Assembly (NCBI GenBank): GCA_030667985.1
Contig: DAOUUU010000001.1
Coordinates: 12,020 to 76,019 of the forward strand
Direction of reading: 5' to 3'
DNA length: 64,000 nt
From: Candidatus Krumholzibacteriota bacterium
GTDB lineage: Bacteria > Krumholzibacteriota > Krumholzibacteriia > Krumholzibacteriales > Krumholzibacteriaceae
The notes under the pieces were generated by a model, which was not told the origin of the DNA, searched no databases, and saw only the letters and a list, made by a program, of their open reading frames with translations. Position 1 is the stretch's first letter, and every line of letters starts with the position of its first letter. The position numbers and the translations under genes were made by a program. Shown here piece after piece: positions 3,034 to 56,660 of the stretch.

Positions 3034-4716
3034 CTAGAGCCTTGTTCTCTTCAGTTCCGCCTTGGCTAGATTCCCCTCGGAGATCTCTATCGGATACCCT
3101 TCGCGCCAGACCTGGAGCTTCTCTTCGAGGAGAGCCTCGGCCTTTATTGCCGTGATCGACTTTTTGATTGTACTCGTCGCATCGAGCATCGAGGGTGTCT
3201 TGGCCTGCTTTATCTCTTCCACCTTCACGACCGCCCAACCGCGGGGCGTCCTGAAGGGGGCGCTTACCGAGCCGGCCTTCTTCAGCGAGAACGCTATCTG
3301 GTCATAGTCCTGAAAGTGCCCCGAATATGTCATCCCGGTCCTTCCCAGGTTCTCCTTTACGGTCGGGTCGAGTGAATAGGCCTTGGCCAGTTCAGCGAAA
3401 TCGTACCCCGAATCGGCTCTCTTCTTAATCTCCTTTGCCGTCTCCTCTTTGGATACCAGGATAATCGAGTAATCCCGCTGTTCCGGAACGATGATGTCAT
3501 CTTTGTTCTCATCGTAATAGGCTTTGATCTCCACCGTGGACACGTCCACCTCACCGTAGATCTGATCCTGGTAAAGCCTTTGTACTATGAACTGTTCTTT
3601 GCGCATCTCGTACGATTCCAGCACTTCGGGTATCTCGAGGATCTTCGCCTTCTGCTCCGCATAGTCGGGAAGAACCGTATCGAACACCTTTTTGTGCATC
3701 GTGAGTATGATATTCTCTTTGCCCCTCCCTCTGTTGGGCCTGTCGGGAAGGCCGAGCAGTTCGTAGTGCTCGGCAAAATCGCTGAGCGTGTACGATTCGT
3801 CCGCAAACGTACAGATTATCATGTCGCGGTACTGATCGGGCAAATCGAGCTTTGGAGCATTCTTGCGTGTGACCTTGTAGGACATTATGTCCTCGATTTT
3901 TATATCCTCAGGGAGAGCGTCGTAGGCGATCGTGATCGCATCCGTGTACCATGTGAGGCCTATATCTTTCTCTATCTTCGCCTTGAGATTTTCTATGCCC
4001 TTCTTCTCCTTGACGCCGCGGATCCGCTTCGCCGCGTAGTCCCTGTTCTTCCCCGGCTCGACCTTTCTGATACGGTGCACCTTCAACAGCGCCCATCCGT
4101 ACGAGGTCCTGAGCGGCGGAGAGACATCACCATCTTTCATGTCGAAGAGGGCCTCCTCGACCCACCATAGTATGCTGCCGACTGTGTTGCTGCCGACAAA
4201 GCCACCGCTTTCGGCCGACATATGGAGAGAATATTTCTTCGCCATTTCGCCGAAATCCTCGCCCCCGCTTATCCTCTCCCTCAGTTCCCACGCCTCGTCC
4301 TCGCCGGTGACAATGATCTGGCTCAGCGTATATTCATACTGCATCTTTTCAAAGTAATAGTCGATCTCCTCTTCGGTCACGACGACCTTCTTGCGAACGA
4401 GCTGGTCCATCAGGGCGGCGACGAGGAAGGGGCCGCGGTAGCGCTGCCACAAGTTCTGGAACCATTCCTCCGTCTCGTATCCAGCGTCACGGGCCTTCAG
4501 GGCCATCACTTCCTTATTGATGATATGATCGAGCAGCTTCTTTCTGCCCTCCAGGTCGTCTGTCTCCGGCAGGAACTTGTTGTCCAGGAGCTCGGCAGCC
4601 TTCTCGAAATCGGCTATGGTGATCTCCTTCTTCTCCACCTTGGCAATGACGAGCTCTTCGCGCTTCGTACATCCCGTAGCAAACAGGACCGAGATCAATA
4701 CAAACAGCAGAATCAT
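3034..4716 (-). CDS. Lipoprotein with two parvulin PPIase domains (PpiD/SurA-like)
   Basis: Two PpiC motifs (SAESGGFVG..SYGWALLKV and GRTGMTYSGHF..PRGWAVVKV) and lipobox LFATGC. The start is placed at the internal ATG (complement 4714-4716), which is preceded by AGGAG; the ORF extends to 4806 with a GTG. Confidence 0.75.
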   Translation of the reverse strand: MILLFVLISVLFATGCTKREELVIAKVEKKEITIADFEKAAELLDNKFLPETDDLEGRKKLLDHIINKEVMALKARDAGYETEEWFQNLWQRYRGPFLVAALMDQLVRKKVVVTEEEIDYYFEKMQYEYTLSQIIVTGEDEAWELRERISGGEDFGEMAKKYSLHMSAESGGFVGSNTVGSILWWVEEALFDMKDGDVSPPLRTSYGWALLKVHRIRKVEPGKNRDYAAKRIRGVKEKKGIENLKAKIEKDIGLTWYTDAITIAYDALPEDIKIEDIMSYKVTRKNAPKLDLPDQYRDMIICTFADESYTLSDFAEHYELLGLPDRPNRGRGKENIILTMHKKVFDTVLPDYAEQKAKILEIPEVLESYEMRKEQFIVQRLYQDQIYGEVDVSTVEIKAYYDENKDDIIVPEQRDYSIILVSKEETAKEIKKRADSGYDFAELAKAYSLDPTVKENLGRTGMTYSGHFQDYDQIAFSLKKAGSVSAPFRTPRGWAVVKVEEIKQAKTPSMLDATSTIKKSITAIKAEALLEEKLQVWREGYPIEISEGNLAKAELKRTRL

Positions 4717-20844: not shown

Positions 20845-22738
20845 CTTCCGCCCCCTTCGGCGCGCCATCGCGCCTCATCCGATCGAGAAATATCATTATA
20901 ATAGAGAGGTCCGATGTGCGGACTCCCGAGATCCTGGACGCCTGGCCCAGCGTCACGGGCCTGAAACGCTCCAGCTTTTCCCTGGCCTCGGTGCTCAACG
21001 CCTTGATATCGTACGAAAACCCCTCCGGGATCGGCATTCTGTCGAGGCGCAACAACCGGTCGGCCATTCGGCGCTGCCGTTTTATATACCCCTCGTACTT
21101 TACGCGTGTCTCGAGTGCCACCCTCTCCCCCCTGTCCAGCTCCAGCAGCGGTCCGGCCATCGCAGTCGCGATCATCTCTATCGTAATGCGGGGCCGCTGC
21201 AGCAATCGCGCCGCCGACTGAGGCTCCTGAACGGGCCTCTCGCCCCCCCCTTCGAGTATTTCGTTGCAGTCCGCCGCCCCTATCCGCTCCCGCCCAATCC
21301 GGACAGCCGCCCTGTTGATCCGGCGCCTGCGTTCTATCATTCGCTCCCATTGCCCTTTCGGCAGGAGACGGCACCGCACGGCATATTTTAATAGCCTTTC
21401 ATCCGCGTTGTCCTGCCTGAGCAGCAGCCTATGTTCCGCACTCGATGTGAACATCCGGTAGGGCTCTCCGATCTCCTTCGTTACGAGATCGTCTACCAGT
21501 ACTCCCGCATATCCTTCCGCCCTGCCGAGCAGTATGGGCTTTTCCCTTTTGATGCTCCGTCCCGCATTTATACCGGCGAGTATCCCCTGCGCGGCGGCCT
21601 CCTCATACCCCGACGTCCCGTTCACCTGGCCGGCGAAGTAGAGCCCTCCGATCCGCCGCGATTCTAGCGATGGGTAGATCTGCCGCGGAGGGAAGAAGTC
21701 GTACTCGATCGCGTACCCGTACCGGACAATACGGGCATCCTCGAGCCCCGGCACGGTCCGAATCATCCCCTCCTGTACATCCCGCGGCAGGCTGGTAGAA
21801 AGCCCGTTGATATATATCTCTTCAGATTCGATGCCCTCCGGCTCGAGAAATATCTGGTGCCTGTCACGGTCCGGGAAACGTACGACCTTGTCCTCGATCG
21901 AAGGACAGTACCTGGGCCCTACACCCGAGATCCTCCCCGTGTAGAGAGGGGATCTGTCCAGCCCGCTTCGAATGGTGTCATGCGTCGCCTGATTCGTATG
22001 CGTTATGTAGCACGATACCTGTTTTTGATCTATACGCTCCGTCCTGAAGGAGAAGGGCGAGGGATCATCGTCACCCGGCTGTTCTAAGCACCTGGAAAAA
22101 TCTACGCTGCTTCTTTCTACCCGCGCGGGCGTTCCAGTCTTGAGCCGTCCCCTCTCTATGCCGAGCGATGCGAGATCGTCACTCAGGCCGCAGGAGGGGG
22201 GCTCTCCCTCCCTGCCCCCGGGGAAGCTTTCCTCTCCTATGTGCATTAGACCGTTCGGGAATGTGCCGAGCGCCAGTATCACCCTCTGCGCCTCGATCCG
22301 GCCTCCACCTCTTACTATCACTCCAGACGCTCGATCCGAATCCACGCCTATCCCGACCACCTCGGCTTCGAGCACCTCGAGGAGCTCCTCGGACATTATG
22401 ACCCGCACCATGCGCTCGTGATACCGGGCCTTGTCCGCCTGCGCCCTCGGCGACCATACGGCGGGACCCTTTGCCCTGTTCAGCATGCGAAACTGGATAC
22501 CCGTTTCGTCTATATTGAGGGCCATCTCCCCGCCCAGGGCATCGACCTCCCTTACCAGCTGCCCCTTTGCAAGCCCGCCTATCGCCGGATTACAGGGCAT
22601 CCTCGCAATATCATCCTTGTTTATAGTGACCATAAGCGTCTCGAAGCCCATCCGGGCTGCCGCCAGCGCCGCCTCGCACCCTGCGTGCCCGCCCCCGACT
22701 ACAACGATCTCGTATCTTTCAATTTTATTCATAATCAT
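20831..22738 (-). CDS. mnmG: tRNA uridine 5-carboxymethylaminomethyl modification enzyme MnmG/GidA
   Basis: N-terminal FAD motif [13 protein letters not shown], 635 aa, characteristic GidA family sequence throughout. Confidence 0.95.
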
Positions 22739-22857
22739 TTTTGATGATTTCTTAATTCAATATTTACAAGCTTGTTATGCATGTTTTCCACAATTTTTAC
22801 TTGTGTCAAAACTTAAATCCATGGCGAGTTGGCAGTCCTGCGCCAAACAGTCATGCC

Positions 22858-24246
22858 CTATTTTCCAATACAGAACCGGCTGAATATAGTATCTAGGAGG
22901 TCGTCCGTCACAGATCGGCCCGTGACGAGCCCGCAGGACTCAGCGGCGGACCTGAGGTCGGCGCTTAGCAGTTCGGCTGGCGCGCCCTCCCGGGCCGACG
23001 CGATAAAACGTTCGAGTCCCTCTGAAACCTCACGAAGAGCTTCGGCCTGCCGAGCATTGACCGCGATGCGCTCCCTGCCTACATCAGCGGCGGAGCCGGA
23101 CACGGAGGTTTCGTGTATCCATCTCCTCAAGCCGTTGAGCCCCGTGCCCTCGAGTGCCGATACGGCAACAACCCGCTCGACGCCGAGGCGTTTCGCCGCA
23201 GCTTCCTCGTCGAGCGATAGCCCCAGATCCTTTTTGTTCAGGACGCAGAGCGTCTCCGCGCCCCCTATCCGCCCGAGCTCGTCCAATACGCTCTCCTCGG
23301 GCTCAAGAGATCCATCTATTACAAACAGGACGATATCCGCCCCCCTTGCGGCGCGCCTTCCTATCGAAATTCCCCTTGCTTCTATCTCGCATCCCGTCTC
23401 TGCAATGCCTGCCGTATCCTCGAGGTAGTATGTAAAACCCTCGATATGTATCCGCTCTCTCAGAAGGTCTCTAGTCGTCCCTGGGACCGGCGACACGATC
23501 GCCCTCTCCTCCCCTATCAGAGCGTTGTATAGGCTGCTCTTTCCGGTGTTCCTCGCTCCGAGTATCGTTATTCTCATCCCATGCCTGAGCTTTAACCCCG
23601 CAACATCGGTCTTGAGGACAGTCTCGAGTTTTTCTACGAGCCCCTCCGCCGAAGCCGTCATCTCATTCGTGTCGTATGTTGGGAGTTCCTCTTCTGTAAA
23701 GTCGATTGATAGTTCGACGAGCGCGAGATGCTCGAGTATCCTTTCTTCGATCTCTCGCACGCTCTTGGATAATCCCCCCTCGAGATGTTCGATCGCTACC
23801 TGCCTCTGCAGCTTTGTTTCCGAGGCGATGAGGTCGGCAACCGCTTCGGCCTGTGCGAGATCTAGCTTGCCGCTCATGAAGGCTCGCCTCGTGAATTCCC
23901 CGGGGGCCGCCGGCATGACGCCCAACCTCATCGCCGCCTCGAGGATCTCCGAGACCACCTGCAGTCCGCCGTGGCACGATATTTCTACAACATCTTCTCC
24001 GGTGTAGCTGTTGGGAGCTTTCATCATAACGACGAGCGCCTCATCGATGATCCGCCCCTCTTCGTCGACCAGTCTTTCGTGGTAAATGCGGTGTGATTCG
24101 CGGGTCTTACGGCCGGTCAGGCCATCGAGAGTTTCCTGTGCCCTCGCTCCAGATATCCTGATGACAGCAATGCCTGATTCGCCCGGCGGCGTGCTCAGGG
24201 CTACAATCGTCTCGCCTTCCATGACGGTGCTCTCGTGAGGGTGCAA
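22858..24246 (-). CDS. mnmE: tRNA modification GTPase MnmE/TrmE
   Basis: N-terminal TIVALSTPPGESGIAVIRISG, G-domain GARNTGKSSL, C-terminal CIGK tetrapeptide. Confidence 0.9.
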   Translation of the reverse strand: MHPHESTVMEGETIVALSTPPGESGIAVIRISGARAQETLDGLTGRKTRESHRIYHERLVDEEGRIIDEALVVMMKAPNSYTGEDVVEISCHGGLQVVSEILEAAMRLGVMPAAPGEFTRRAFMSGKLDLAQAEAVADLIASETKLQRQVAIEHLEGGLSKSVREIEERILEHLALVELSIDFTEEELPTYDTNEMTASAEGLVEKLETVLKTDVAGLKLRHGMRITILGARNTGKSSLYNALIGEERAIVSPVPGTTRDLLRERIHIEGFTYYLEDTAGIAETGCEIEARGISIGRRAARGADIVLFVIDGSLEPEESVLDELGRIGGAETLCVLNKKDLGLSLDEEAAAKRLGVERVVAVSALEGTGLNGLRRWIHETSVSGSAADVGRERIAVNARQAEALREVSEGLERFIASAREGAPAELLSADLRSAAESCGLVTGRSVTDDLLDTIFSRFCIGK

Positions 24247-24270: not shown

Positions 24271-24966
24271 CTACCTGTTATAGTGCCGGTCCCCACCCTG
24301 GTCACCCCGGCCGGTCGAGACACAGACTTTCCTCATATCCCCATTACCGACCGTGTAAGTAGTGACGCCGTCGACATCCGCCAATGCGAGGTGGACCATT
24401 CTTCTCTCGGCCGCCTGCATCGGCTCGAGCGGAATATCTCTCCCCGTCTTCTTTGCCCGCTCGGCCGCCTTGAGCGCCTTCTGCTTGAGGATCTCCCGCC
24501 TGTTCAACAGGTAACCGCCGATATCCAGCGTGAGCCTCTGGTAGCCTCCCATCCTCTTCGAGACGATCCTTCCTGTCAAGTGCTGGAGCGAGTTCAGCGT
24601 GTCGCCCTTTCTCCCGATCAGAAGCCCGTCTACTCCCGCCGTCTCTATATTTATATATGTGCTATCGTCCTCTTCCTTGGTGAAGAGTCTATAGTTGACA
24701 TCCAGGCAGTCCATAATCGTCCTGGCGACATCGTCGACCGCCTCCTCGATTCCCTTCCCTCCCGATTTGCGGGTCACCCTTATCTGGGCGTCTCTCGAAC
24801 CGAACAGGCTCAGCATGCCTTTCTGCCCGGCATCTATGATCTCGATCTCGACTTCTTCTATGCTCGTGCCAAGCTCTTTCAGGGCTTTCTCCAGGGCCTT
24901 CTCGACCGACTTCCCGGAAAAGAGAATACCGTCTCTCTTGATTATCTTTCCGCCTTTTTTCATCAT
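24271..24966 (-). CDS. jag: Jag/KhpB RNA-binding protein (KH + R3H domains)
   Basis: The C-terminal R3H region (LEPMQAAERRMVHLAL) and a KH-like domain are present, and it sits in the classic position after yidC. Start taken at MMKKGG (AGGAG 8 nt upstream); the ORF extends to 25011. Confidence 0.8.
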   Translation of the reverse strand: MMKKGGKIIKRDGILFSGKSVEKALEKALKELGTSIEEVEIEIIDAGQKGMLSLFGSRDAQIRVTRKSGGKGIEEAVDDVARTIMDCLDVNYRLFTKEEDDSTYINIETAGVDGLLIGRKGDTLNSLQHLTGRIVSKRMGGYQRLTLDIGGYLLNRREILKQKALKAAERAKKTGRDIPLEPMQAAERRMVHLALADVDGVTTYTVGNGDMRKVCVSTGRGDQGGDRHYNR

Positions 24967-25067
24967 CCCATATCTCCTGTTCTTCTTGATATGACCGTTG
25001 CTCGATATCATCCGATCTGTCTATGACGACTCTTGTTTCTTCCGCGCGCGCGGGCAGGCTTTCTTCA

Positions 25068-26837
25068 TCATGATGTCTCTTTTGCCGCCGCTTCACTCTC
25101 CTCCTCTTCAACCTCCCTGTGCACATAGTACTGCTGAACGATCGTCAGGATGTTGTTGACTATCCAGTATAGGACCAGCCCCGACGGCATCGCGTAGAAC
25201 ACGAAGGTCAGGACGATCGGCATCATCGTCGACATCATCTTGGTCTGGCCGGGAGGATTAGCCCCCCCTGTCGGCGACGCACCCAATTTCGTCTGAAGCA
25301 CCATCAGCCCCCCCATCAATATGGGCAGAAGATGGAACTCGTTTCCAACGAATGGAATCGAAGCGCCGAAACTGAACAGTACGTCGGGCGATGATAGATC
25401 GTTTATCCAGAACACAAACGGTGCGTTCCTGAGTTCGATCGTATTACGCAGGACGTTGAAGAGCGCGATGAAGACGGGCATCTGGAAAAGCAACGGCAGG
25501 CAACCGCCGAGCGGATTGACTCCCCCGTCCTTGTAGAGTTTCATCGTCGCCTTGTTCAGCTTTTCCTTATCATCCTTATGTTTTTCCTGGAGCTCCTTGA
25601 TCTTCGGCTGGAGCCTCTGCATATCCTTCATCGATTTGAAGCTCTTGTGCGTCAACCGATAGAAGACGACCTTGGTCAGAATCGACAGGATTATAATAAT
25701 CAGGCCGTAGTTCGGTACAAACCTATTTAGCATGAGCATTAATCTCAGCGCGAGAACGCTCACGATCCTCAGCTTGCCGAGGTCGATCGTCTTCTCAAGT
25801 CCGATCCCGTACGCCTTCAGCGTATTCATGTCGAGCGGTCCGAGGTAGCAGACGAAGGAATCCTCGACGACCCTCGGATCCCCCCTGAACGGATACCGCA
25901 GGGCGTACCCGACATAGTTCTCGCTTTTCTCTCCAAACAGCGACACCGAGCTCGAGCGGGGCTCCAGCGGAATCAGCGCGCTGAGAAAATATTTACTTCT
26001 CGTTCCCGCCCACGCGACCATTCCCTCGTGGGCTTTTTCCGTAGTCTTCGAAAACTTGCGCACCGGCTCCTGGTAAAATTCTTCGCCAACGGTGCTGAGT
26101 GATGCGAATTGCCTGATGTCCCTCTGCGCATCTTTTTCGTTCACCGCCATGCCGCCTTCCCATCCAATCGAATAGGCGCCTGTATCTTTCAGCCACCCAT
26201 CCCGGCGCACTTCGATGTCAAGGCCGACCTCGTACCCTTCGACACTGAACGTAAAACGCTTCTCTAGATATCCTCCCGCCTCATCCCGAATCAGAAAGGC
26301 CACCACCGCTTCCTGCCCCTCTTCCCGAACGACTATCTCCTCGCCTTGCTCCGCTGCTCTGCCGTTTACATAGGCTATATAGCCGGTACCGGCATGGCTG
26401 TCCCACTGCCCGTCACGCAGCGTCGAGATCCTGAAACCGCCGGAGCTCTCTTCCGGCATGAGCGCAACCGGAGTTCCATCCGGTCTCTCATACTCGATCA
26501 GCTCCACCTGCTTCATATCTCCACCGATGCTGCTCAGAAGGACGCGCATCGTACTCGTCAATACCGTTATCTCGGTGGCCCGAACCTCCGAAACGACCCC
26601 TGCCACTGTCCCGGTCGCTTCTTCGATCTTCTCGACCGAGGGGGGTTCTTTCGGCGCCTCGGCAATAGTGTCGGCTTCCGTCTCGCGCGCTTCGATTGTT
26701 GCAATTGAATCCGCGATAGCCAACTCTGCGGATCTCTTCCGGTCGATTTCCTTTTTCTTCGGCCCTACATAAAACATCTGGTAGCCGAGCAGTACAACGA
26801 AGGTCAACAAAACCGCAATAATGGTGCGTTTGTCCAT
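25068..26837 (-). CDS. yidC: Membrane protein insertase YidC
   Basis: Large periplasmic domain followed by a conserved TM core ([28 protein letters not shown]). 589 aa. Confidence 0.9.
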
Positions 26838-26895: not shown

Positions 26896-27120
26896 TCAGC
26901 GAACAGGGTCGTAACCGCCACGCGAGAATGGGTGGCACCGGAGAAGCCGGCGCAAGGCCAGCCATGCTCCCTTGCGGGGGCCATACTCCTTAAGTGCCGC
27001 CTCGGCATAGGCGGAGCAGGTGGGCGTGAATCTACACACAGGTGGATGATAGGGGGAAATCGCATTCCTGTATATTCTGAGGGCCCCGAGGCCCAGGTGA
27101 TTCAAAGTCCGAGATATCAT
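26896..27120 (-). CDS. yidD: Membrane protein insertion efficiency factor YidD
   Basis: 74 aa, YidD/DUF37 signature LIRFYRxxISP..P..CRFxPTCSxYA. Confidence 0.85.
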
Positions 27121-27461
27121 CCGTTTGTTGATATGAGTCCTGCTCTTGCCATTGAGCCTTCGACGTCCTCGAATAGCTCGCCGTAATTCGTATCTTTAGG
27201 CTTGAAAGAGGCGATGAATACTACCCAGATGTTGTCTTCGGTGATCCGCTCCCGCAGCTGCCTGAATATCTCGCGCATCAACCTCTTCGCCCTGTTTCGC
27301 TGGTTCGCCTTTCCTATCTTCCTGCTTGCAACGAACCCCGGAAGAACCCCTTCGGACCCTTCCCTTAGATAATAAATGACGACTTTCTTCCCGACTTCCT
27401 TTTTACCCCCTCGGTACACAGCGCGAAACTGTCTATCTTTTGTAAGCCCCTTTGATGCCAT
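27117..27461 (-). CDS. rnpA: RNase P protein component RnpA
   Basis: 114 aa, basic, with an RNR motif region ([14 protein letters not shown]). It overlaps yidD by 4 nt and follows rpmH. Confidence 0.85.
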
Positions 27462-27483
27462 ATGGCACCATCTCTTTTCTTTT

Positions 27484-27618
27484 TTAGACCGCTAATCGCG
27501 CTCTTCCTTTGGCTCTCCTCCTTTTCAACACCAATCGTCCGTTCTTCGTGCTCATTCTCTTTCGAAATCCATGGGTCTTTTTTCTTCTTCCATTGTGCGG
27601 CTGATACGTTCTCTTCAT
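27484..27618 (-). CDS. rpmH: 50S ribosomal protein L34
   Basis: Not in the ORF track (under 60 aa). Manual minus-strand translation gives [44 protein letters not shown] (44 aa). Confidence 0.85.
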
Positions 27619-28165
27619 CTCAATATCTCCTATTTTTGATATTTCACAATGAGTTCCGTTCCCATATCTTACATGTATTAAAGTAATTCACGATAAAAAA
27701 GATCTTCTTCCTTGTCAAGACTTTTATGCCCTTCGCGCTTATCCCCTTATGCCTCCAAAGGTTGCCGGACCATTCCCTTCTTCACAAATCCGCGATTCTC
27801 CATTCCACTTGGTAGTTAAATATTCTGTCACGCGCTATCTTTATATATATCAACCTATTGCAAAATTTTTCCCCCGCCGTGTAAAATTCTCTTGATTAGG
27901 TTTTCCACGTGTGGTAGATTTCGCTCCGCGGGATGGGGGCAACTTCCCCCGTAAAGTGATATTTACAGCATTGTTCTCACATCTTATCCGCTCATCTTGC
28001 TAGAATGTGGAAAACGTTCTGAAGTTGCAGCGAATGGCCCTCCAAACCCGTTGTAAGCGCAAAAAATAGCAGGTTTTCCACAATTGTGGAAAATGGTTGG
28101 TTCGTCAAGGAATAATCAGCCTTTCGCGGGAACGGGTTCTTCCTTGCAGTCAGATATAGGAACCT
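27619..28165. other. oriC part 1: DnaA-box cluster in the rpmH-dnaA intergenic region
   Basis: Multiple near-consensus DnaA boxes are present. They include TTTTCCACG/TGTGGTAGA at 27901-27919, TTATCCGCT at 27984-27992, TGTGGAAAA at 28006-28014 and a perfect 20-bp palindrome TTTTCCACAATTGTGGAAAA at 28074-28093. There are AT-rich stretches at 27631-27700 and 27830-27900. Confidence 0.6.
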
Positions 28166-29542
28166 TTGGGTCATACTGGGCGGAACATAATGGTAACACA
28201 ACAGTTGGGGGAACTCTGGGACCGCGTCCTCGATAGGGCCGGCACGCTCGTTAACGCACAGAGCTTCAAGACCTGGTTCAAGCCCACGAAACTCGTGAAA
28301 TTCGAGGAGGGTCGCCTCATCGTGGAGGGGCCCAACCCGTTTTTCGTAGACTGGCTCTCCGAGCATCACCTCGAAAAGATCGAATTCGCCGCGCGCGAGA
28401 CCCTCGGCGAGGATGTTTCGGTTGAATTCGTCTCGTCCGGCACCCCCCAGCGCACAACATCTCCCGAAGACGGCGTGCGCAGATCGGTTCTCGTCAACAA
28501 GCAGGTGACTCTCCCCAATAAGGTTCACCTGAACGCCCGCTACACATTCGACGAATTCGTCGTCGGCGGCAACAGCCGCCTGGCGCATGCCGCGGCGCTA
28601 GCCGTCGCGGAGCAGCCGGCCCGTGCCTACAACCCCCTGTTTATCTATGGAGGCGTCGGCCTCGGCAAAACCCATCTTATCCAGGCCATCGGGCATCAGG
28701 TGCTCACGGAACACCCCGCGCTGCGCATCTCCTATGTATCCGCCGAGAGCTTCATGAACGAGCTGATCCATGCCATACGCAAGGGCGTGACGCTCGAGTT
28801 CAAGGATCGGTACCGCAACATCGACATTCTCATGATAGACGATATTCAGTTCCTCGCCGGCAAGGAGAGCACGCAGGAGGAGTTCTTTTTCACCTTCAAC
28901 GCACTACACGACGCGAACAAACAGATAGTCGTTACGAGCGACAGGCCCCCAAAGGAGATCCCGAAGCTCCAGGAGCGCCTCACGTCCCGGTTCGAGTGGG
29001 GGTTGATTACGGACATACAGCCGCCCGATCTCGAAACGAGGATCGCCATTCTCCGAAAGAAGGTCGAGAACGAGCGCATCGCCATCCCGGACGACGTCAT
29101 CGAACTTATAGCCGAGAATGTCAAGAGCAACATCCGCGAGCTAGAGGGCTCGTTGATCCGGATACTTGCCTGCTCATCCCTTGCCTGCCAAGAGATCAAC
29201 GTCAAAATGGCCCACAGCGTCCTCAGAGACATCATAAAGGGCTCCCCCAAGAAAACCCCCGATGTAAATACGATCCAGCGGGCTGTCTCGCAGCATTTCG
29301 ACATCCCTGTCGAGACCCTCAAGGCCAAGACGAGAATCAGCCGAGTTGTCCGTGCTCGCCAGGTCGCTATATATATCACGCGCGAGCTCACCGATTGCTC
29401 GCTTGTTCAAATTGGAAAATATTTCGGCGGGCGGGATCACAGTACCATTCTTCACGCGTGCAAGAAAATCGAACGCGAACTCGAGAACGACCCGGCTCTC
29501 GAGAGAAAACTGGAGGCTGTCCGGGAAGATCTCTCCGCCTAG
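28166..29542 (+). CDS. dnaA: Chromosomal replication initiator DnaA
   Basis: AAA+ Walker A GGVGLGKTHL, a sensor region, and the C-terminal DNA-binding domain (VAIYITRELTD..IGKYFGGRDHSTILHACKKIE). The ORF begins with TTG; an in-frame ATG lies 8 codons downstream. Confidence 0.95.
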   Translation: MGHTGRNIMVTQQLGELWDRVLDRAGTLVNAQSFKTWFKPTKLVKFEEGRLIVEGPNPFFVDWLSEHHLEKIEFAARETLGEDVSVEFVSSGTPQRTTSPEDGVRRSVLVNKQVTLPNKVHLNARYTFDEFVVGGNSRLAHAAALAVAEQPARAYNPLFIYGGVGLGKTHLIQAIGHQVLTEHPALRISYVSAESFMNELIHAIRKGVTLEFKDRYRNIDILMIDDIQFLAGKESTQEEFFFTFNALHDANKQIVVTSDRPPKEIPKLQERLTSRFEWGLITDIQPPDLETRIAILRKKVENERIAIPDDVIELIAENVKSNIRELEGSLIRILACSSLACQEINVKMAHSVLRDIIKGSPKKTPDVNTIQRAVSQHFDIPVETLKAKTRISRVVRARQVAIYITRELTDCSLVQIGKYFGGRDHSTILHACKKIERELENDPALERKLEAVREDLSA

Positions 29543-29910
29543 TGTATCGTTATTCACAGTTTCCACAGAGTGCCTGTTAAAATACTGTTTATTTCTGTGG
29601 ATATGTCCAGGGTGTGTTGACAAGAGAGGTTTCTTCAACATACAATCAACACAGCAAGCGTGCGCCTGGGGTGGCCGGCGATGCGCTTGCCGGAAGGTTA
29701 TCAACATATCGACACTACCTACTACTACTACTATTTTATTACTTAATATCTGTATTAGTAGTTTATATAACCATGCTCGATTTATTGTTTGTTTTGGTTT
29801 TTTATTTCACTTGAAGAAGCTCTTGGAATTATCCTATGATACAGGTTCGCGATAGATAAATATGTGGATTTGGTTGCGTCGGCGCGTAATGCCCTGCAGG
29901 AGGTAGCGGT
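29543..29910. other. oriC part 2: dnaA-dnaN spacer with DnaA boxes, trinucleotide run and AT-rich unwinding-element candidate
   Basis: DnaA boxes TTATTCACA (29550-29558), GTTTCCACA (29559-29567) and TGTGGATAT (29596-29604). A (TAC)5 run at 29716-29734 is followed by about 90 bp of more than 75% AT (29735-29830). Confidence 0.55.
29716..29734. repeat. Trinucleotide run TACcTACTACTACTACTAT in the dnaA-dnaN spacer (DnaA-trio-like)
   Basis: Read directly from the sequence; it sits between the DnaA boxes and the AT-rich block. Confidence 0.9.
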
Positions 29911-31017
29911 GTGAAGATAATAGTACAACTCGGTGAACTCAGCAAAAAGATGAACGCGATATCATCGGTCGTTCCGGGAAAGACAACAATGCCCATCCTG
30001 TCGACGGTACTAGTCGTCGCCGACAAGGACGGTATAACTTTCTCCGCCACAGATCTCGATATATCCGTTACTTCCAAAGTGAAGGGGAAGGCTGATGGGA
30101 AAGGCACATTAGCTGTGCCGGCAAAGAAACTGGCCGAGATCGTCAAATCACTATCGGGTGATTCAGTGACCATAGAGGCGAGTGGCGAGAAAATGACTCT
30201 TACTTGCGGCAAAAGCCGGTTTGTGCTCAACGGGAGAAGCGCGGAGGATTTTCCAAAGCTGCCGAAGCAGGAGAGCAAGACATCGTTCAGCATCGATCCG
30301 GAAACACTAGCAAAACTCATACGGAAAACGATATACGCCGTGTCTACGGATCTTACGCGGCCGGCGCTTTGCGGTGTTCTGTGGGAGATATCGAGAGCGG
30401 GTATATCAATGGTGTCTACCGACGGGCACAGGCTGTCGAAGGTGGACCTCGCTAGGGAATTTTCCGATGTCGAGAGTGTGCAGGTCATAATACCGCCAAA
30501 GGCACTGTCCACGCTCAAGGCATACGCCGAGGGCGAGAAGGAAGTAAGGGTGAGCATCGCCGAAAACAGCGTCTCGTTCGATATGGAGGACACGGCGATC
30601 TACTCGAGACTTCTCGAGGGCCCATTCCCGGCATATCAGAAGGTCATCCCTGCGGCGAACGAGAAAGAGCTTATCGTCGGACGGGAAGCGCTGGCGGAGG
30701 CCACAAAACGCGTCTCCATCCTGGCGGACACACTGACTCACCAGGTGGTCTTCTCGACGGGCAAGGATAAGCTCACTCTGCACGTGAATACGCAGGAGAT
30801 AGGAGAGGCCAAGGAAGAGGTGACGGCTAAGTTCACCGCAGACCCGATGGACATAGGTTACAACGCCAGCTATGTAATGGATGTCCTGAAGACGATAGAC
30901 GCAGACGAGATTTCACTCAAACTCGACAGGTCGGATAACGCGGGGCTGGTCGAGCCGGTCTCTGAGGCTGGCGAGCTCAAGCACCTGTGCATCTTGATGC
31001 CGCTACGTATCAGCTAG
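29911..31017 (+). CDS. dnaN: DNA polymerase III beta sliding clamp DnaN
   Basis: 368 aa three-domain clamp. GTG start with GGAGG 7 nt upstream. Confidence 0.95.
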   Translation: MKIIVQLGELSKKMNAISSVVPGKTTMPILSTVLVVADKDGITFSATDLDISVTSKVKGKADGKGTLAVPAKKLAEIVKSLSGDSVTIEASGEKMTLTCGKSRFVLNGRSAEDFPKLPKQESKTSFSIDPETLAKLIRKTIYAVSTDLTRPALCGVLWEISRAGISMVSTDGHRLSKVDLAREFSDVESVQVIIPPKALSTLKAYAEGEKEVRVSIAENSVSFDMEDTAIYSRLLEGPFPAYQKVIPAANEKELIVGREALAEATKRVSILADTLTHQVVFSTGKDKLTLHVNTQEIGEAKEEVTAKFTADPMDIGYNASYVMDVLKTIDADEISLKLDRSDNAGLVEPVSEAGELKHLCILMPLRIS

Positions 31018-31042: not shown

Positions 31043-32146
31043 TTGATCATTAAATCGCTCGATCTGGTTAATTTCCGTAACATCAAAGAAGCGACCCTTG
31101 CCTTTTCCGGGACATTCAATGTCATCCGGGGCAGGAACGCTCAGGGGAAGACGAACCTTCTTGAAGCCATTCACCTTTTTTCTCTTGGAAGATCCTTCAG
31201 GACCAGGAGACGCGAGGAGATGGTGAAGTTCGACGAGGAGTACCTCTTCGCGCGCCTCGCCTGCACGAGTGACGCAGGCGTCAGCTTCCGTATCGAGATA
31301 GGTCTCGAGAGGGGCGGGAGGATCAGCGTGTCGGTCAACGGCAAGAAACTCGCAGCGCTCTCCGAGATCATCGGAATAATGCCGACGGTGATCTTTATAC
31401 CGGAAGACGTTGCGCTCGCCACGGGGCCGCCCTCGGAACGAAGGACCTTTGTGGACTATACGGCGTCCCAGATATCACCCTCGTTCCTTCAAAACCTCAA
31501 AGAGTACAGGAAGGTGCTCGTTCAGAGAAACGCCGCCCTGAAGAGGGCGATGGAGAGCGGGAGCCAGCCGGAGGGCATCACGGCGTGGGACGAGATGATC
31601 GTGGAGTGCGGCGCGGCGATCATCGAGGGGCGGCAGGAGATGCTGTCCGAGATCGAGAGCCGGGCGTCGAGATTGATAGACGACATCATGACTGGCACCG
31701 GAGCGATCACGATGCAGTATTCATGCTCCGTCGATCTGAGCGGGAAGGAGACGAAAGAGGCTCTCCGCGAAGCGCTCCTGGGGACCAGGGATCAGGAGAA
31801 GAGAAGGGGATATACCCTGGTCGGGCCGCACTACGACGACATCAGCATCTTTCTTGATGACAGGGAACTCAAAAGGTATGGATCCCAGGGGAGGAAGCGG
31901 CTCGCGTCGATAATTCTGAAGCTCGCCCAGGCCTGGGCCATCATGGAGCGCAGGGCGGAAAGGCCGATTGTCCTTCTCGACGATATCTTTTCCGAGCTGG
32001 ACGACGAGACCGCGAGAAGGGTGAACAGCCTGCTGTCGGACAGGTACCAGAGCTTCATTACGACCCCCCGCACAGAGGATATTATCGATGTCGAGGCTGC
32101 CCGGTTTTTCGTCGAGGAGGGTGTTGTGGCCGTCGAGAAAGAATAA
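31043..32146 (+). CDS. recF: DNA replication and repair protein RecF
   Basis: Walker A GRNAQGKTNLLEAI, an ABC signature region and a Walker B LLLDDIFSELD. Confidence 0.9.
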   Translation: MIIKSLDLVNFRNIKEATLAFSGTFNVIRGRNAQGKTNLLEAIHLFSLGRSFRTRRREEMVKFDEEYLFARLACTSDAGVSFRIEIGLERGGRISVSVNGKKLAALSEIIGIMPTVIFIPEDVALATGPPSERRTFVDYTASQISPSFLQNLKEYRKVLVQRNAALKRAMESGSQPEGITAWDEMIVECGAAIIEGRQEMLSEIESRASRLIDDIMTGTGAITMQYSCSVDLSGKETKEALREALLGTRDQEKRRGYTLVGPHYDDISIFLDDRELKRYGSQGRKRLASIILKLAQAWAIMERRAERPIVLLDDIFSELDDETARRVNSLLSDRYQSFITTPRTEDIIDVEAARFFVEEGVVAVEKE

Positions 32147-32260: not shown

Positions 32261-34476
<2,216 letters not shown>

Positions 34477-34560
34477 GATGGGCGCGGCTCCGAAGGCATG
34501 AGGCCCAGGAGCCGGGCGTTCTCTAACAGGAGAACACCGGGACACAAAGGAGAAGCTTAC

Positions 34561-37194
34561 ATGGATATAGGCAGGCAGCGGGTAATACCGATCTACATAG
34601 AAGACGAGATGAAGAGTAGCTACCTCGACTACTCGATGAGCGTGATTGTCTCGAGGGCGCTGCCAGATGTGCGGGACGGGCTGAAGCCTGTTCACAGGCG
34701 CATACTGCTTGCCATGAACGATCTCGGCCTGGTGCACAACAAGCCCTACCGGAAATCTGCGAAGGTGGCCGGTGACGTAACCGGAAACTATCATCCACAC
34801 GGGACGGCCGCCGTATACGACGCAGTCGTGAGGCTCGCGCAGGATTTCTCGATGCGATACCCCTTGATAGACGGCCAGGGCAACTTCGGTTCGATCGACG
34901 GGGATCCCGCCGCGGCGGAGAGGTACACAGAGGTCCGCATGACAGAGCTCGCCGTCGAGCTGCTCAAGGACATCGAAAAGGAGACTGTCGAGTTCGGCCC
35001 GAACTATGACGAGACGCGCCAGATGGCACTAGTGCTCCCATCGAAAATACCAAATCTTCTCGTAAACGGCGCTTCTGGAATCGCCGTGGGCATGGCGACG
35101 AACATACCTCCGCACAATATCATGGAAATCGTCGACGGCCTGATCGCGATACTGGACGATCCCGAAATCACGATCGACGGGCTCTGCAAGATCATAGAGG
35201 GGCCGGATTTCCCCACGGGCGGGATAATATACGGACGCAGCGGCATACGCGAAGCGTACCATACGGGCAGGGGCAAGATAACATTGCGCGCCAGGGCGAA
35301 CATCGAAACGATGAAGAGCGGCAAGACGAGCATAGTCGTCACCGAGATACCATACCAATCGAACAAGGCCTCGATCATAGCGAAGATCGCGGCTCTGGTG
35401 CGCCAGGGAAAGATCGACGGGATAAGCGACATAAGGGACGAATCGGACAAGGAGGGCATGCGCATCGTCATAGAGCTAAAGAGGGACTCCTATCCGAAGG
35501 TGGTTCTCAACCAGCTCTTCTCCCACACGCAGCTCCAGATGACATTCGGCATCATCATGCTTGCCCTCGACGAGATGAAACCCGAGGTCATGGACTTAAA
35601 AAGGATGATGGCGGCGTTCCTGAAGCATCGCGAGGAGATAGTGACGCGCCGCACGCAGTACGACCTCAAGCGCGCGGAAGAGCGAGCCCATATCCTGGAG
35701 GGCTACAAAGTCGCCCTCGACCACATAGACGAGATCATTCAGCTCATAAAGAAGAGCGCGTCCCCCGCTGAGGCGCGCACGGGCCTTATGAAGAAGTTCA
35801 AGTTCACAGAGATCCAGGCCCAGGCGATCCTGGACCTCAGGCTGCAGAGACTGACGGGCCTGGAGCGCCAGAAGATCGAAAACGAGTACCTCGAACTGAT
35901 CAAGAAGATCGAATACTTCCGGTCAATACTCGAGAGCAGGGAAAGGCTGATCGGGATAATAAAAGATGAGCTCGAGGCGCTGAAGGACCGGTTCGGGGAC
36001 GCCCGGAGAACGGAGATCGTCGAGGGCGATGGAGAATTCGAACTCGAGGACCTGATCGCCGAAGAGGATATGATAATAACGGTGACCCGTACTGGATATA
36101 TCAAGCGGATCCCGATAGGTACATACCGCAGGCAGCGGCGCGGCGGCAAAGGAGTGACCGGCCTTGGCATGAAGGACGAGGATTTCGTCCAGAATCTCTT
36201 TATCGCTTCGACCCACAGCTACATCCTATTTTTCACAGATAAGGGAAAGTGCTACTGGGTGAAGGTGTACGAGATCCCTCAAGGGGGGCGTCTGGCGAGG
36301 GGCAAGGCGATCGTCAACCTGCTCGAGATGTCCCGAGAGGAAAACATCACCGCCATGGTGCCGGTCGGAGATTTCAGCGCGGATGCTTACCTGATGATGG
36401 CGACGAAGGACGGCTTCATAAAGAAGACACATCTTTCCTCCTATTCGAATCCACGCAGGGGAGGAATAAACGCCATAATCCTCCGCGAGGGCGACCGGCT
36501 TATCGAGTCGCGCCTCACGTCCGGCAATGACGACGTGATCCTTGCCAAGAAGAAGGGCAAGGCGATACGTTTCAGCGAAAGCGACGTGCGCAAGATGGGA
36601 AGGGTGACACGGGGAGTAAAGGGCGTCACGCTCGACAAGGATGACGAGGTCGTCGACATGGTCGTGGTGAAGCGCAAGGCCGAGATCCTTGCCGTTACGG
36701 TAAATGGCTACGGCAAGAGGACCAGGATCAGTGATTTTCGCAACATTCGCCGCGGCGGCAAGGGCGTGGTCTGCATACCGACTGCGGGACGGAACGGTGT
36801 TCTCGTCTGCGTGAAAGAAGTCATTGAGACGGACGAGGTCATGATGATAACCAGCAAGGGGCTCGTTATCCGCTGTCCGATAAAAGGTATTCCGGTGCTG
36901 GGGCGCCCGGCCAAGGGTGTCAGGGTCATCAGGCTCAACGCCGGCGATTCACTCGTCGATGTAGCACTGATCGTGGGCGGGGATGAGGGGAACGGAGATA
37001 TCGAGGAACAGGTCCTGATTGCCGGCGAGGAGGAAAACGTGGGGGATCCCGGGGAAGAAGCCCCGGAAGTAGAGGAGGAAGAGGAAAAGGAAGAGCCGGA
37101 AAAGAAAAATGAAAAACCGAAAAGCAAAGATACAGCTAATAAGAAGGCGAAAGACAAACCGGCCAAGCCCAAGGCAAAGGGCAAGAAGAAATGA
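34561..37194 (+). CDS. gyrA: DNA gyrase subunit A with an unusual charged C-terminal tail
   Basis: The active-site Tyr region, the GyrA-box QRRGGKG and beta-pinwheel CTD repeats are present. Start is the ATG at 34561 after AAAGGAG; the ORF extends upstream to 34498. The last ~70 aa are an E-rich block followed by a KPAKPKAKGKKK-type basic block. Confidence 0.95.
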   Translation: MDIGRQRVIPIYIEDEMKSSYLDYSMSVIVSRALPDVRDGLKPVHRRILLAMNDLGLVHNKPYRKSAKVAGDVTGNYHPHGTAAVYDAVVRLAQDFSMRYPLIDGQGNFGSIDGDPAAAERYTEVRMTELAVELLKDIEKETVEFGPNYDETRQMALVLPSKIPNLLVNGASGIAVGMATNIPPHNIMEIVDGLIAILDDPEITIDGLCKIIEGPDFPTGGIIYGRSGIREAYHTGRGKITLRARANIETMKSGKTSIVVTEIPYQSNKASIIAKIAALVRQGKIDGISDIRDESDKEGMRIVIELKRDSYPKVVLNQLFSHTQLQMTFGIIMLALDEMKPEVMDLKRMMAAFLKHREEIVTRRTQYDLKRAEERAHILEGYKVALDHIDEIIQLIKKSASPAEARTGLMKKFKFTEIQAQAILDLRLQRLTGLERQKIENEYLELIKKIEYFRSILESRERLIGIIKDELEALKDRFGDARRTEIVEGDGEFELEDLIAEEDMIITVTRTGYIKRIPIGTYRRQRRGGKGVTGLGMKDEDFVQNLFIASTHSYILFFTDKGKCYWVKVYEIPQGGRLARGKAIVNLLEMSREENITAMVPVGDFSADAYLMMATKDGFIKKTHLSSYSNPRRGGINAIILREGDRLIESRLTSGNDDVILAKKKGKAIRFSESDVRKMGRVTRGVKGVTLDKDDEVVDMVVVKRKAEILAVTVNGYGKRTRISDFRNIRRGGKGVVCIPTAGRNGVLVCVKEVIETDEVMMITSKGLVIRCPIKGIPVLGRPAKGVRVIRLNAGDSLVDVALIVGGDEGNGDIEEQVLIAGEEENVGDPGEEAPEVEEEEEKEEPEKKNEKPKSKDTANKKAKDKPAKPKAKGKKK

Positions 37195-46706: not shown

Positions 46707-46858
46707 CGGATAGGTCCCCCGTGTGTTGATGGCTCGTATTTGTAGGGTGCCCGGCACCACACCACTTGCAAGCCGGCTTCGATGTATTGTAGTATATTTC
46801 ATATAACATAAAAGGGTTTCAAAAATATTGTATCAAATAGCCCGCAAGGAGCACAGAG

Positions 46859-56341: not shown

Positions 56342-56660
56342 GGTTTTACCCCGCTATGTAAGGTGCCCTTCAGGAAGAACAGGCAGAAATACCGACAATT
56401 GTTATCAGGAATAATCTATTTGGATATCCCCCGTAATGCAAAGAAAAAACATGCTTGCGCTTGATCGGGCAAGCCGGGATGCCTCGTTCGTCCAGGCATC
56501 AGGACATCATTATATTATATATATAAGCGTTTACAAAATCCCTTAAGATAAAAAATTTAGTGGAACTATTGTAAGGAATTATTTTATAATAGAATATTGG
56601 CCTTCGAGCCTATTCATAATTGCGTAATACAACATGTTAACCCTATTGGGAGGGTATTGT

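Follow-up and report, generated by a model that had tools for sequence, protein, structure and literature searches.

In the incC part of the Bacillus subtilis oriC, boxes 6/7, a run of DnaA-trios and an AT-rich 27-mer follow one another in the dnaA-dnaN spacer (Richardson 2016/2019, Pelliciari 2021/2023). This order of boxes, DnaA-trios and AT-rich DNA defines the basal unwinding system (BUS), given for B. subtilis as 3'-AATAGGTGT-TTAGGTGT-CCGG-GATGATAATGAAGATGAT-5' (Table S2, PMC8287927). A 9-mer box and an 8-mer box, a 4-bp gap and GAT trios at a spacer of 12 are common to B. subtilis, L. monocytogenes, S. aureus and C. botulinum. A survey of 2070 species from across the Bacteria predicted BUS modules in 85%, Gemmatimonas, Ignavibacterium and Nitrospira among them, so that trios outside the Firmicutes are not the surprise that was implied in an earlier reading of the DNA studied here, made without database searches (the sequence-only reading). 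Cryo-EM has shown capture of the G and the A of a trio but not of its third base.

An origin is called bipartite when a spacer gene, usually dnaA, lies between two box-cluster subregions, of which one contains the DNA unwinding element (DUE) (PMC4285127). B. subtilis (incAB/incC) and H. pylori (oriC1/oriC2) have this arrangement. In the bipartite origin of C. difficile, whose trio is written 5'-CACCTACTACTATTACTACTATGA-3', DnaA-dependent melting takes place in oriC2, within the dnaA-dnaN spacer.

Here we analyse a dnaA locus with the same rnpA-rpmH-dnaA-dnaN context as that of C. difficile. The region is very probably the chromosomal oriC of a Krumholzibacteriota bacterium, with standard BUS unwinding expected in the dnaA-dnaN spacer. 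It is an ordinary oriC made of standard parts (boxes, canonical trios, an AT-rich stretch), a textbook case rather than a novel type of origin.

Results

The window, that is the whole stretch of 64,000 nucleotides analysed, has a GC content of 56.9%. Its host is not a Firmicute: the closest relatives of its DnaA and DnaN are found in Krumholzibacteriota MAGs. Genes around the origin are arranged in the order mnmE-jag-yidC-rnpA-rpmH / dnaA-dnaN-recF-gyrB, and the gene strand switches between rpmH and dnaA. The left edge of the region is rpmH, encoding ribosomal protein L34 (27484-27618, minus strand; Pfam Ribosomal_L34, E = 4e-22). The initiator gene, dnaA (28190-29542, plus strand), encodes a protein of 450 aa with the Pfam domains DnaA_N, Bac_DnaA and Bac_DnaA_C. 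The ribosome-binding site and start codon of dnaN (AGGAGGT and GTG, 29898-29913, plus strand) contain a GGAGG block that is invariant in alignment A3, and the Pfam DNA_pol3_beta domains of DnaN begin at residue 1.

Each of the three genes is preceded by a promoter-like site. That of rpmH (TTGACA-17-TATCGT, 27690-27718, minus strand) was found by a consensus scan with 10/12 matches; its -35 block, TTGTCAAG, shows little or no variation across 10 aligned relatives. A putative dnaA promoter, read off the sequence, consists of TTGATT, 17 bp and the extended -10 element TGgTAGATT (27892-27920, plus strand); in alignments A2 and A4, CTTGAT and T.TG.TA..TT either do not vary or are conserved to 90% or more. 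The site preceding dnaN (TTGAAG-18-TATGAT, 29811-29840, plus strand) has CTTG and TAT..T invariant in 10 relatives. Another conserved block, CCGCGGGATGGGGG..CCCC, lies right after the dnaA -10. We considered that it might form an RNA hairpin; the single-sequence fold gave z = -1.7 and the alignment fold comprised four pairs with essentially no covariation. It is treated as a conserved sequence without an assigned role. Scanning positions 27000-30200 against Rfam at E up to 1 produced no match.

DnaA boxes were scored as matches to TTWTCCACA with at most one mismatch. The rpmH-dnaA and dnaA-dnaN spacers, 939 bp together, contain eight such boxes, four in each, while the remaining 63 kb contain 21. 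Box density is thus 8.5 per kb in the spacers versus 0.33 per kb elsewhere, an approximately 25-fold difference (Poisson P ~2e-9). When each spacer was subjected to dinucleotide shuffling, the observed count was reached in 0-2 of 1000 trials. Clustering of near-consensus boxes on both sides of dnaA, as had been reported in the sequence-only reading, is therefore well above background frequency. Every sequence quoted in that reading was found at the position given for it. However, the box that it took for a local variant, TTTTCCACA, fits the AA[TA]AGGTGT motif used by DoriC for B. subtilis itself.

The GC-skew check proposed at the time was carried out on the 64-kb window. The cumulative G-C minimum falls at 29500, with a flat range from 28970 to 30156, and the sharpest change in skew is near 29750; this minimum is local to the window and confounded with the switch in gene strand. 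The skew changes sign, and the gene strand switches, at the dnaA-dnaN spacer.

On the plus strand, this spacer carries the sequence TTATCAACA-TATCGACA-CTAC-(CTA)5-TTT between positions 29698 and 29736. The module starts with two tandem co-oriented boxes, TTATCAACA (29698-29706, one mismatch) and ATATCGACA (29706-29714, two mismatches), which overlap by 1 nt as do boxes 6/7 of B. subtilis, and in both of which the C-C core departs from consensus (TCAACA and TCGACA). These are the boxes that truly abut the repeat. They had been overlooked in the sequence-only reading, which described the set at 29550-29604 as immediately preceding the repeat even though 111 bp intervene. The 4-bp gap between the proximal box and the trios, CTAC (29715-29718), formerly the "GC-rich region" of such modules, is not GC-rich and is variable among relatives. 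It is followed by an uninterrupted (CTA)5 (29719-29733), contained within TACcTACTACTACTACTA, and by TTT. On the minus strand, to which DnaA would be expected to bind, this amounts to six consecutive trios, 3'-(GAT)5-AAA-5' (29719-29736), the criterion being at least three units of 3'-NAN-5' with 3'-GAT-5' preferred. The two boxes are 12 bp and 4 bp away from the first trio, respectively; they are co-oriented as 5'-TTATCCACA-3' and have no more than two mismatches, the allowed distance being 0-16 bp.

The same repeat had previously been described as (TAC)5 within TACCTACTACTACTACTAT at 29716-29734, and as a non-canonical trio (5'-TAC-3' / 3'-CAT-5'). The sequence is indeed present at that position, yet a C interrupts the TAC run and the uninterrupted unit is (CTA)5. 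As for the trio itself, DnaA-trios are by definition read on the complement of 5'-TTATCCACA-3' (a convention taken from the supplementary tables of Pelliciari 2021), and the frame of a repeat is otherwise arbitrary. In the register set by the box with the 12-bp spacer, the repeat reads 3'-GAT-5' five times and hence is canonical; the complete trio-bearing strand is 3'-AATAGTTGT-ATAGCTGT-GATG-GATGATGATGATGAT-AAA-5'. The TAC variant resulted from an error of frame and strand, being the same repeat read from the other strand with the frame shifted by one base. In trinucleotide repeats of this kind, the adjacent DnaA box must fix frame and strand before a trio is called non-canonical.

To score BUS candidates, both strands of the 64 kb were scanned. 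The best candidate was the module at 29698-29736, with a score of 16; the next independent site scored 9. None of 2000 shuffles reached 16. The minimal published criterion is permissive, being passed by 49% of shuffled spacers and by 20% of non-origin tiles; the assignment to the BUS class rests therefore on the high score and on conservation. The module falls inside the oriC predicted from the skew switch (local to the 64 kb), the box cluster and the indicator genes. An independent assembly (L161, Logan SRR22839552) shows one mismatch over 3212 bp and has the same repeat count, so the CTA run did not arise as an artefact of assembly.

Directly distal to the trios is the minimum of duplex stability. 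By the nearest-neighbour method, the 60-bp duplex at 29715-29774 is the least stable in the 64 kb (z = 4.8), and the segment 29719-29818 ranks second for low stability among 100-mers. The AT-rich DNA that had been noticed after the repeat is borne out, 29734-29825 having 75% A+T. The DUE is predicted to span 29737-29810. Altogether, the proposed Bacillus-type layout, in which boxes, trinucleotide repeats and an AT-rich element succeed one another in the dnaA-dnaN spacer, holds.

Alignment with relatives revealed that the BUS module, unlike its flanks, is conserved in nine members of the Krumholzibacteriota/Latescibacterota with DnaA identities of 53-82%. The tandem boxes have 1.43 bits per column, versus about 0.5 in the flanks (10 relatives). 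In the trios of the nine relatives, the first position is C in 42/45 cases and the second is T in 36/45, whereas the third is variable; trio 2 is poorly conserved, with T in 6/10. The closest relative (L081) failed the strict BUS scan, having CGA as its second trio, but the module is present in the alignment. What the nine relatives share is the boxes and a period-3 CTN run at the same position; in two of them, L083 and L085, the trios are degenerate. Conservation of positions 1 and 2, with position 3 free, agrees with the capture of G and A seen by cryo-EM.

Among solved structures, the DnaA protein is best matched by that of B. subtilis DnaA bound to the BUS (8btg; E = 8.6e-143). Residues E186, N190, I193, I196, K225, E226, E231 and R267 are identical to E183, N187, I190, I193, K222, E223, E228 and R264 of the B. 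subtilis protein. The arginine finger, R267, is retained; R202 of B. subtilis is replaced by lysine (K205). As judged from these alignments, DnaA keeps the trio-reading, single-stranded DNA-binding (ISM) and oligomerisation residues of B. subtilis DnaA.

Several features make the module closely resemble incC of B. subtilis. It occupies the same spacer, strand and orientation; it has a 9-mer and an 8-mer box overlapping by 1 nt, a 4-bp gap, a spacer of 12 and 3'-GAT-5' trios leading into AT-rich DNA; the spacer has roughly seven boxes in both, and the trio-reading DnaA residues are conserved. Differences are that box 6 is perfect in B. subtilis, whereas both proximal boxes are off consensus here; that the gap is CCGG in place of CTAC; and that the B. 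subtilis trios (GAT GAT AAT GAA GAT GAT) contrast with a perfect (GAT)5. Furthermore, the present host belongs to a candidate phylum of the FCB group with 57% GC, and its origin is known from sequence alone. The module of C. botulinum, 3'-AATAATTGT-ATAGTTGT-TCGG-(GAT)6-AAA, is alike in its degenerate TCAACA-type tandem boxes, spacer of 12 and perfect GAT run ending in AAA, although C. botulinum, like C. difficile, belongs to another phylum and has a different base composition. In the 2070-species survey, the modules of Gemmatimonas aurantiaca, Ignavibacterium album and Ca. Nitrospira defluvii also have tandem boxes, a gap of 3-4 bp, GAN/AAT trios and a spacer of 11-13, but trios in neighbouring phyla are less regular (GACGACGATGAT; AATGATAATGATAAC) than here. 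The BUS coordinates listed for Gemmatimonas and Ignavibacterium (~1.7 kb) would fit a place just after dnaA. In the Nitrospira loci examined, by contrast, dnaA is separated from dnaN by only about 37 bp, and the BUS lies about 260 bp upstream of dnaA, on the other strand.

The segment between dnaA and the BUS contains additional boxes. Farthest away is a tandem pair, TTATTCACA and GTTTCCACA (29550-29567, plus strand), within a block, CCACAnnnTCCACA, that is conserved in alignment A3. It is followed by two boxes on the minus strand, ATATCCACA (29596-29604, one mismatch) and TTGTCAACA (29615-29623, two mismatches). All three sequences previously listed for this part, TTATTCACA, GTTTCCACA and TGTGGATAT, are present within 29550-29604. 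A degenerate tandem, TCTTCAACA and CAATCAACA (29632-29651, plus strand), was recognized by the box scan for the first member and by eye for the second, which has three mismatches; its TTTTC(C/A)ACA ... TCAACA pattern is conserved in alignments A1 and A3. The dnaA-dnaN spacer has about eight boxes together with the BUS and the DUE. Two other candidate features of this segment were discarded. A strong promoter-like sequence, TTGACA-18-TACAAT (29617-29646), would transcribe through the BUS; its TTGACA overlaps the box at 29615-29623, this -35 is not conserved, and relatives have a reverse-oriented DnaA box, TGTGGAAAG or TGTGGAGAA, at the equivalent place. A GC-rich inverted repeat (29654-29690), considered as a dnaA terminator, has z = -1.4, lacks a T tract and is not conserved.

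On the other side of dnaA, the leader contains a perfect box, TTTTCCACA (28006-28014, minus strand), whose TGTGGAnAA is invariant in 10/10 relatives, and a head-to-head pair of perfect boxes with a 2-bp spacer. The pair forms the 20-bp palindrome TTTTCCACAATTGTGGAAAA (28074-28093), about 100 bp upstream of the dnaA start, and is kept in 10/10 aligned relatives. Both the palindrome and the upstream cluster singled out by the sequence-only reading are hence present and conserved. Similar head-to-head pairs precede dnaA in 43/80 loci from Nitrospirota, Clostridia, Chloroflexota and other phyla, with a spacer of 2-3 bp except for three listed pairs at 5-6 bp.

Discussion

The arrangement of these elements suggests how the origin might work. 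Domain IV of DnaA would bind the two co-oriented boxes at 29698-29714. From this anchor, the AAA+ domains would oligomerise on the minus strand over the 3'-GAT-5' trios (29719-29736), with the 3'-GA-5' dinucleotide of each trio captured between neighbouring protomers. The duplex would be stretched and opened into the adjoining AT-rich element (29737-29810), where the helicase would be loaded. The approximately five further boxes at 29550-29651 probably supply DnaA to the BUS. As to the upstream cluster (the 28006 box and the 28074-28093 pair), which lies in the dnaA leader downstream of the conserved promoter-like site, it would at minimum bind DnaA and autoregulate dnaA. It may also serve as oriC1, the second half of a bipartite origin, through DnaA-mediated looping.

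Could the run of CTA units be a neutral slippage microsatellite in an AT-rich spacer, with no role in DnaA binding? The perfect five-unit repeat is confined to this genome, relatives having imperfect versions, and chance easily satisfies the minimal BUS definition. However, the run occurs at the same position, 4 bp past the same conserved tandem boxes, even in relatives whose DnaA is only 53% identical, and its period-3 C-T-N pattern persists where flanks have diverged to about 0.5 bits per column; a neutral repeat would not hold register and position over phylum-level distances. Together with the score that no shuffle attained and the identical repeat count in the independent assembly, this makes the microsatellite hardly credible. 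Scarcely better is the idea that the boxes near dnaA are a regulatory relic and that the active origin is elsewhere, outside the window or in another AT-rich spacer. In some bacteria oriC is not beside dnaA, our view spans 64 kb, and the AT-rich mnmG-mnmE spacer (22707-22819) has one perfect box. This latter spacer was dismissed as a rival origin, having that single box and no BUS, and other AT-rich spots (56.5 kb and 46.8 kb) are without a box cluster. Given that the change in skew sign and the gene-strand switch are at the dnaA-dnaN spacer, where the top-scoring BUS, the stability minimum and the box cluster coincide, we regard an origin elsewhere as highly improbable.

A more serious question is whether the origin has one part or two. 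At the level of sequence, dnaA lies between two box subregions, one of which has the DUE, and this is how a bipartite oriC is defined, and it is in this sense that the term "bipartite" of the sequence-only reading can be kept. Alternatively, all of oriC might reside in the dnaA-dnaN spacer, which by itself has about eight boxes, a BUS and a DUE, the upstream boxes and palindrome being operators for dnaA autorepression and "bipartite" a misnomer. The three conserved upstream boxes all follow the promoter-like element, the BUS scan found no BUS or trio run upstream of dnaA, and in many phyla the head-to-head pairs are at a short and fairly fixed distance from the dnaA start (~40 bp in Nitrospira), as operators would be. 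Yet in B. subtilis, C. difficile and H. pylori, tested species with the same gene order, DnaA binds both clusters; unwinding in vitro needed both in C. difficile; and looping lets the distal boxes of B. subtilis act over a variable distance, whichever way they are oriented. In those species the looping or mutual requirement (B. subtilis, H. pylori), or the P1-nuclease pattern and the need for oriC1 (C. difficile), were demonstrated, whereas our comparison is one of sequences, and the leader boxes may be purely autoregulatory. Autoregulation alone would fit the conserved leader boxes equally well, although it and origin function are not mutually exclusive. On balance, we give the one-part origin a substantial chance, somewhat short of even.

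Assigning the head-to-head pair (spacer 2-3 bp) the status of a discrete, very old functional module of the origin region goes further, and we think it rather unlikely to be right. If it were, the pair might form the centre of an ancestral "oriC1", one that ties the expression of dnaA to firing through a loop to the BUS, and would be more than an autoregulatory operator.

Beyond annotation, these findings have little importance. With them, oriC can be called confidently, and its parts placed at base level, in a candidate phylum for which metagenome-assembled genomes are the sole source; such a call can be used for rotating or closing MAGs, for estimating growth rates from read depth (peak-to-trough ratio) and for the design of shuttle replicons. 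They also add one more lineage to those that point to an ancestral box-trio unwinding module in bacteria. A lesser point concerns the comparative pattern of the trios: preservation of 3'-GA-5' with a free third base fits the structural model of the BUS, and this pattern, including the tolerance of trio 2, would constitute independent evolutionary support for dinucleotide capture.

Location of the probable origin

The dnaA region is organized around a switch in gene orientation. The mnmE (22858-24246), jag (24271-25011), yidC (25068-26837), rnpA (27117-27461) and rpmH (27484-27618) genes lie on the minus strand, and dnaA (28190-29542), dnaN (29911-31017), recF (31043-32146) and gyrB (32572-34476) on the plus strand, all with strong Pfam matches; a long plus-strand ORF at 34498-37194 is presumably gyrA. 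GC skew is -0.14 left of rpmH and +0.08 right of dnaN. Within the 64-kb window, cumulative G-C reaches a local minimum at 29500 (flat from 28970 to 30156) coincident with the strand switch, and the biggest skew step falls near 29750.

DnaA boxes were counted allowing at most one mismatch. TTTTCCACA occurs 20 times in 64 kb (8.0 +/- 3.0 in shuffles) and TTATCCACA 15 times (6.8 +/- 2.6). With the pooled motif TTWTCCACA, 8 of 29 matches lie inside the rpmH-dnaA and dnaA-dnaN spacers (939 bp together), a density of 8.5 per kb as compared to 0.33 per kb elsewhere (Poisson P ~2e-9). Dinucleotide shuffling of each spacer separately reached the observed box count in 0-2 of 1000 trials. As judged from nearest-neighbour duplex stability, no 60-mer in the window is less stable than 29715-29774 (z = 4.8), and 29719-29818 ranks second among the least stable 100-mers. 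The sequence-only reading had placed an origin here, and the skew minimum (local to the 64 kb), the box enrichment and the stability minimum bear it out beyond chance; every string it quoted was found in its place. Its view of TTTTCCACA as a special local variant did not hold up: for B. subtilis itself, DoriC uses the motif AA[TA]AGGTGT, and the alignments show relatives using TTATCCACA at the equivalent sites.

The predicted unwinding module and its trio frame

The published rule for a basal unwinding system (BUS; DnaA boxes plus DnaA-trios) calls for a DnaA box with no more than 2 mismatches, 0-16 bp (commonly 10-13) between that box and the first trio, and at least three trios of the form 3'-NAN-5', most frequently 3'-GAT-5' (Pelliciari et al. 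2021, PMC8287927). We implemented this rule and scanned both strands of all 64 kb. The best candidate, at 29698/29706-29736, scored 16, the next independent site 9. The minimal rule is permissive: of the shuffled spacers, 49% contained some "BUS", as did 20% of 368-bp tiles from outside the origin. Among 2000 shuffles the highest score was 14, and none attained 16.

The tables of the survey write the module 3' to 5'. The B. subtilis entry reads AATAGGTGT-TTAGGTGT-CCGG-GATGATAATGAAGATGAT, with a spacer of 12 and ascending coordinates 1852-1900 (PMC8287927), so the dnaA-to-dnaN strand of that species is 5'-TTATCCACA-AATCCACA-GGCC-CTACTATTACTTCTACTA-3'; likewise, the C. difficile trio is written 5'-CACCTACTACTATTACTACTATGA-3'. 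From 29698, the window reads 5'-TTATCAACA-TATCGACA-CTAC-CTACTACTACTACTA-TTT-3', the complement of which is 3'-AATAGTTGT-ATAGCTGT-GATG-(GAT)5-AAA-5'. In this frame the predicted trio is the canonical GAT. The non-canonical TAC trio proposed earlier came from reading the repeat one base off frame and on the wrong strand. Two tandem boxes (from 29698 onward) adjoining the trio run had been overlooked, and the boxes at 29550-29604, cited as directly preceding the repeat, are separated from it by 111 bp. The perception of a Bacillus-like layout was correct. The geometry of boxes, gap and spacer equals that of the published tables: a 9-mer box, an overlapping 8-mer box, a 4-bp gap and a spacer of 12 are shared with Bacillus, Listeria, Staphylococcus and C. 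botulinum.

Conservation of the module and of DnaA

DnaA searches of genome and metagenome collections provided nine usable relatives with 53-82% DnaA identity (Krumholzibacteriota MAGs, one Latescibacterota MAG and unbinned metagenome contigs). When the dnaA-dnaN spacers of all ten sequences are aligned, information content is 1.43 bits per column in the tandem boxes and 1.72, 1.26 and 0.89 bits at trio positions 1, 2 and 3, respectively, against about 0.5 bits in the flanks (40 columns upstream, 60 downstream). With the window left out, the relatives have 45 trios, of which 42 have C at position 1 and 36 have T at position 2; position 3 varies (A 28, T 8, C 5, G 4). Thus, the perfect (CTA)5 is peculiar to this genome, but the period-3 C-T-N pattern is conserved, as is its spacing from the boxes. 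Conservation of the trinucleotide run in relatives, one of the checks named by the sequence-only reading, is upheld in this form; a neutral slippage microsatellite would not show such a pattern. Conservation is weak at trio 2, where T is present in 6 of 10 sequences; this trio is CGA in L081, which is why the strict scan missed this relative's locus, and in two others (L083 and L085) the run is degenerate. Across the module, the window is identical to an independent assembly of the same organism (Logan SRR22839552).

In the cryo-EM structure of B. subtilis DnaA on BUS, the 3'-G and central A of the trio are held in an inter-protomer pocket, with the third base pointing outward (PMC10721633). 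The conservation of positions 1 and 2 matches this dinucleotide capture. The window DnaA has the DnaA_N, Bac_DnaA and Bac_DnaA_C Pfam domains, and its best match among solved structures is 8btg, B. subtilis DnaA on BUS (E = 8.6e-143). Residues reported to contact the trios or the fork are identical (B. subtilis E183, N187, I190, I193, K222, E223 and E228; window E186, N190, I193, I196, K225, E226 and E231), as is the arginine finger (R264 and R267). B. subtilis R202 is conservatively changed to K205. The helix-turn-helix reads GGRDHSTILHA.

Remainder of the dnaA-dnaN spacer

Additional DnaA boxes lie at 29550, 29559 and 29632 on the plus strand and at 29596 and 29615 on the minus strand, and another, with 3 mismatches, at 29643; the majority are position-conserved. 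The Latescibacterota distal boxes fall outside the comparison, owing to a masked N run in that locus (L006, ~4365-4460). In B. subtilis, distal boxes of this kind supply the BUS with DnaA through looping, and do so whatever their orientation and over flexible distances. For dnaN, a conserved TTGAAG-18-TATGAT (29811-29840) resembles a promoter, and an invariant AGGAGGT ahead of the GTG start resembles a ribosome-binding site. A GC-rich imperfect inverted repeat (29654-29690, GCAAGCGTGCGCC...GGCGATGCGCTTGC) separates the distal boxes from the BUS and shows no T tract, no sequence conservation and no significant fold (z = -1.4); relatives are also GC-rich at this place, with unrelated sequence.

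The upstream cluster

Ten sequences were also aligned across the rpmH-dnaA spacer. Invariant elements include the rpmH -35 (TTGACA, 27713-27718, minus strand), a promoter-like CTTGAT, 17 bp, TGnTAnATT (27892-27920), a TGTGGAnAA box (28006-28014) and a head-to-head box pair (28074-28093). Also invariant is a CCGCGGGAT block followed by a G-run and a C-run (27926-27950), directly 3' of the dnaA -10 element, with equivalents in L081, L082, L083, L002 and L003; folding of this block gave neither significant structure (z = -1.7) nor covariation, and it is possibly a transcription-start/discriminator region or a regulator binding site. Just 5' of the dnaA -35, AAAATTTTTCCCCCG (27866-27876) is kept in most of the Krumholzibacteriota-like sequences aligned (the window, L081, L082, L002 and L003, partly L083 and L084) and is not conserved in L004, L086 or the Latescibacterota locus L006; it may act like an UP element or bind a factor.

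This arrangement puts the three conserved boxes in the dnaA leader, as expected of autoregulatory operators, and a purely autoregulatory role for the upstream cluster is a serious possibility, to which we give slightly less than even weight. Of the first 80 loci compared, 43, from many phyla including Nitrospira, Clostridia and Chloroflexota, have head-to-head pairs (mostly TTATCCACA-N2-3-TGTGGATAA) ahead of dnaA, making the palindrome a widespread feature rather than a peculiarity of the lineage. The two boxes of a pair are generally 2 bp apart in Krumholzibacteriota, Latescibacterota and Nitrospira loci; 3 bp is the commoner spacing in loci titled Lachnospiraceae, Anaerotignum, Agathobacter and the like. 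At the sequence level, an origin counts as bipartite when dnaA separates two box clusters, one of which has an AT-rich DNA unwinding element (PMC4285127), and such an arrangement is found here. In the functional sense, DnaA bridges the clusters or both are needed, as shown in C. difficile and H. pylori. The label "bipartite", given to the window origin from its sequence, is unproven.

Comparison with other phyla

A survey of 2070 species spanning the bacterial domain predicted BUS modules in 1755, with biochemical verification in seven species that represent four phyla; among the species surveyed, Gemmatimonas, Ignavibacterium and Nitrospira are neighbours of this lineage and have the same predicted module. 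"Latescibacteria" does not appear among the survey table entries listed in the part consulted, an absence that is no proof, and the portion of the literature covered includes no paper on an origin in Krumholzibacteriota. The window origin is of a known type, of which it is a very clean example, and would not surprise replication specialists. The Nitrospira/Nitrospirota loci (L007-L042) differ: their dnaA-dnaN spacer is merely ~35-40 bp, and their best BUS, with tandem boxes and up to 9 alternating CTA/CTC trios, lies ~255-267 bp upstream of dnaA and faces away from it (e.g. L029 2744, L015 2746 and L012 2743, minus strand), which puts the unwinding module on the opposite side of dnaA in that phylum. 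The Nitrospira head-to-head pair lies ~40 bp ahead of the dnaA start.

Other AT-rich stretches and boxes in the window

Two further intergenic stretches, 56498-56597 and 46781-46840, are strongly AT-rich and of low stability (z = 4.5-5.5), with a DnaA-box cluster in neither. The mnmG-mnmE spacer (22707-22819; 77-82% A+T) is also among the window's most AT-rich and least stable stretches. Neither a BUS nor a box cluster is present there; the spacer carries a single perfect TTTTCCACA at 22784-22792 and may be a DnaA-regulated promoter for mnmG (gidA). The window's only perfect TTATCCACA (58791-58799, minus strand), between plus-strand ORFs 57829-58740 and 58919-59971, could serve to titrate DnaA or mark a promoter that DnaA regulates.
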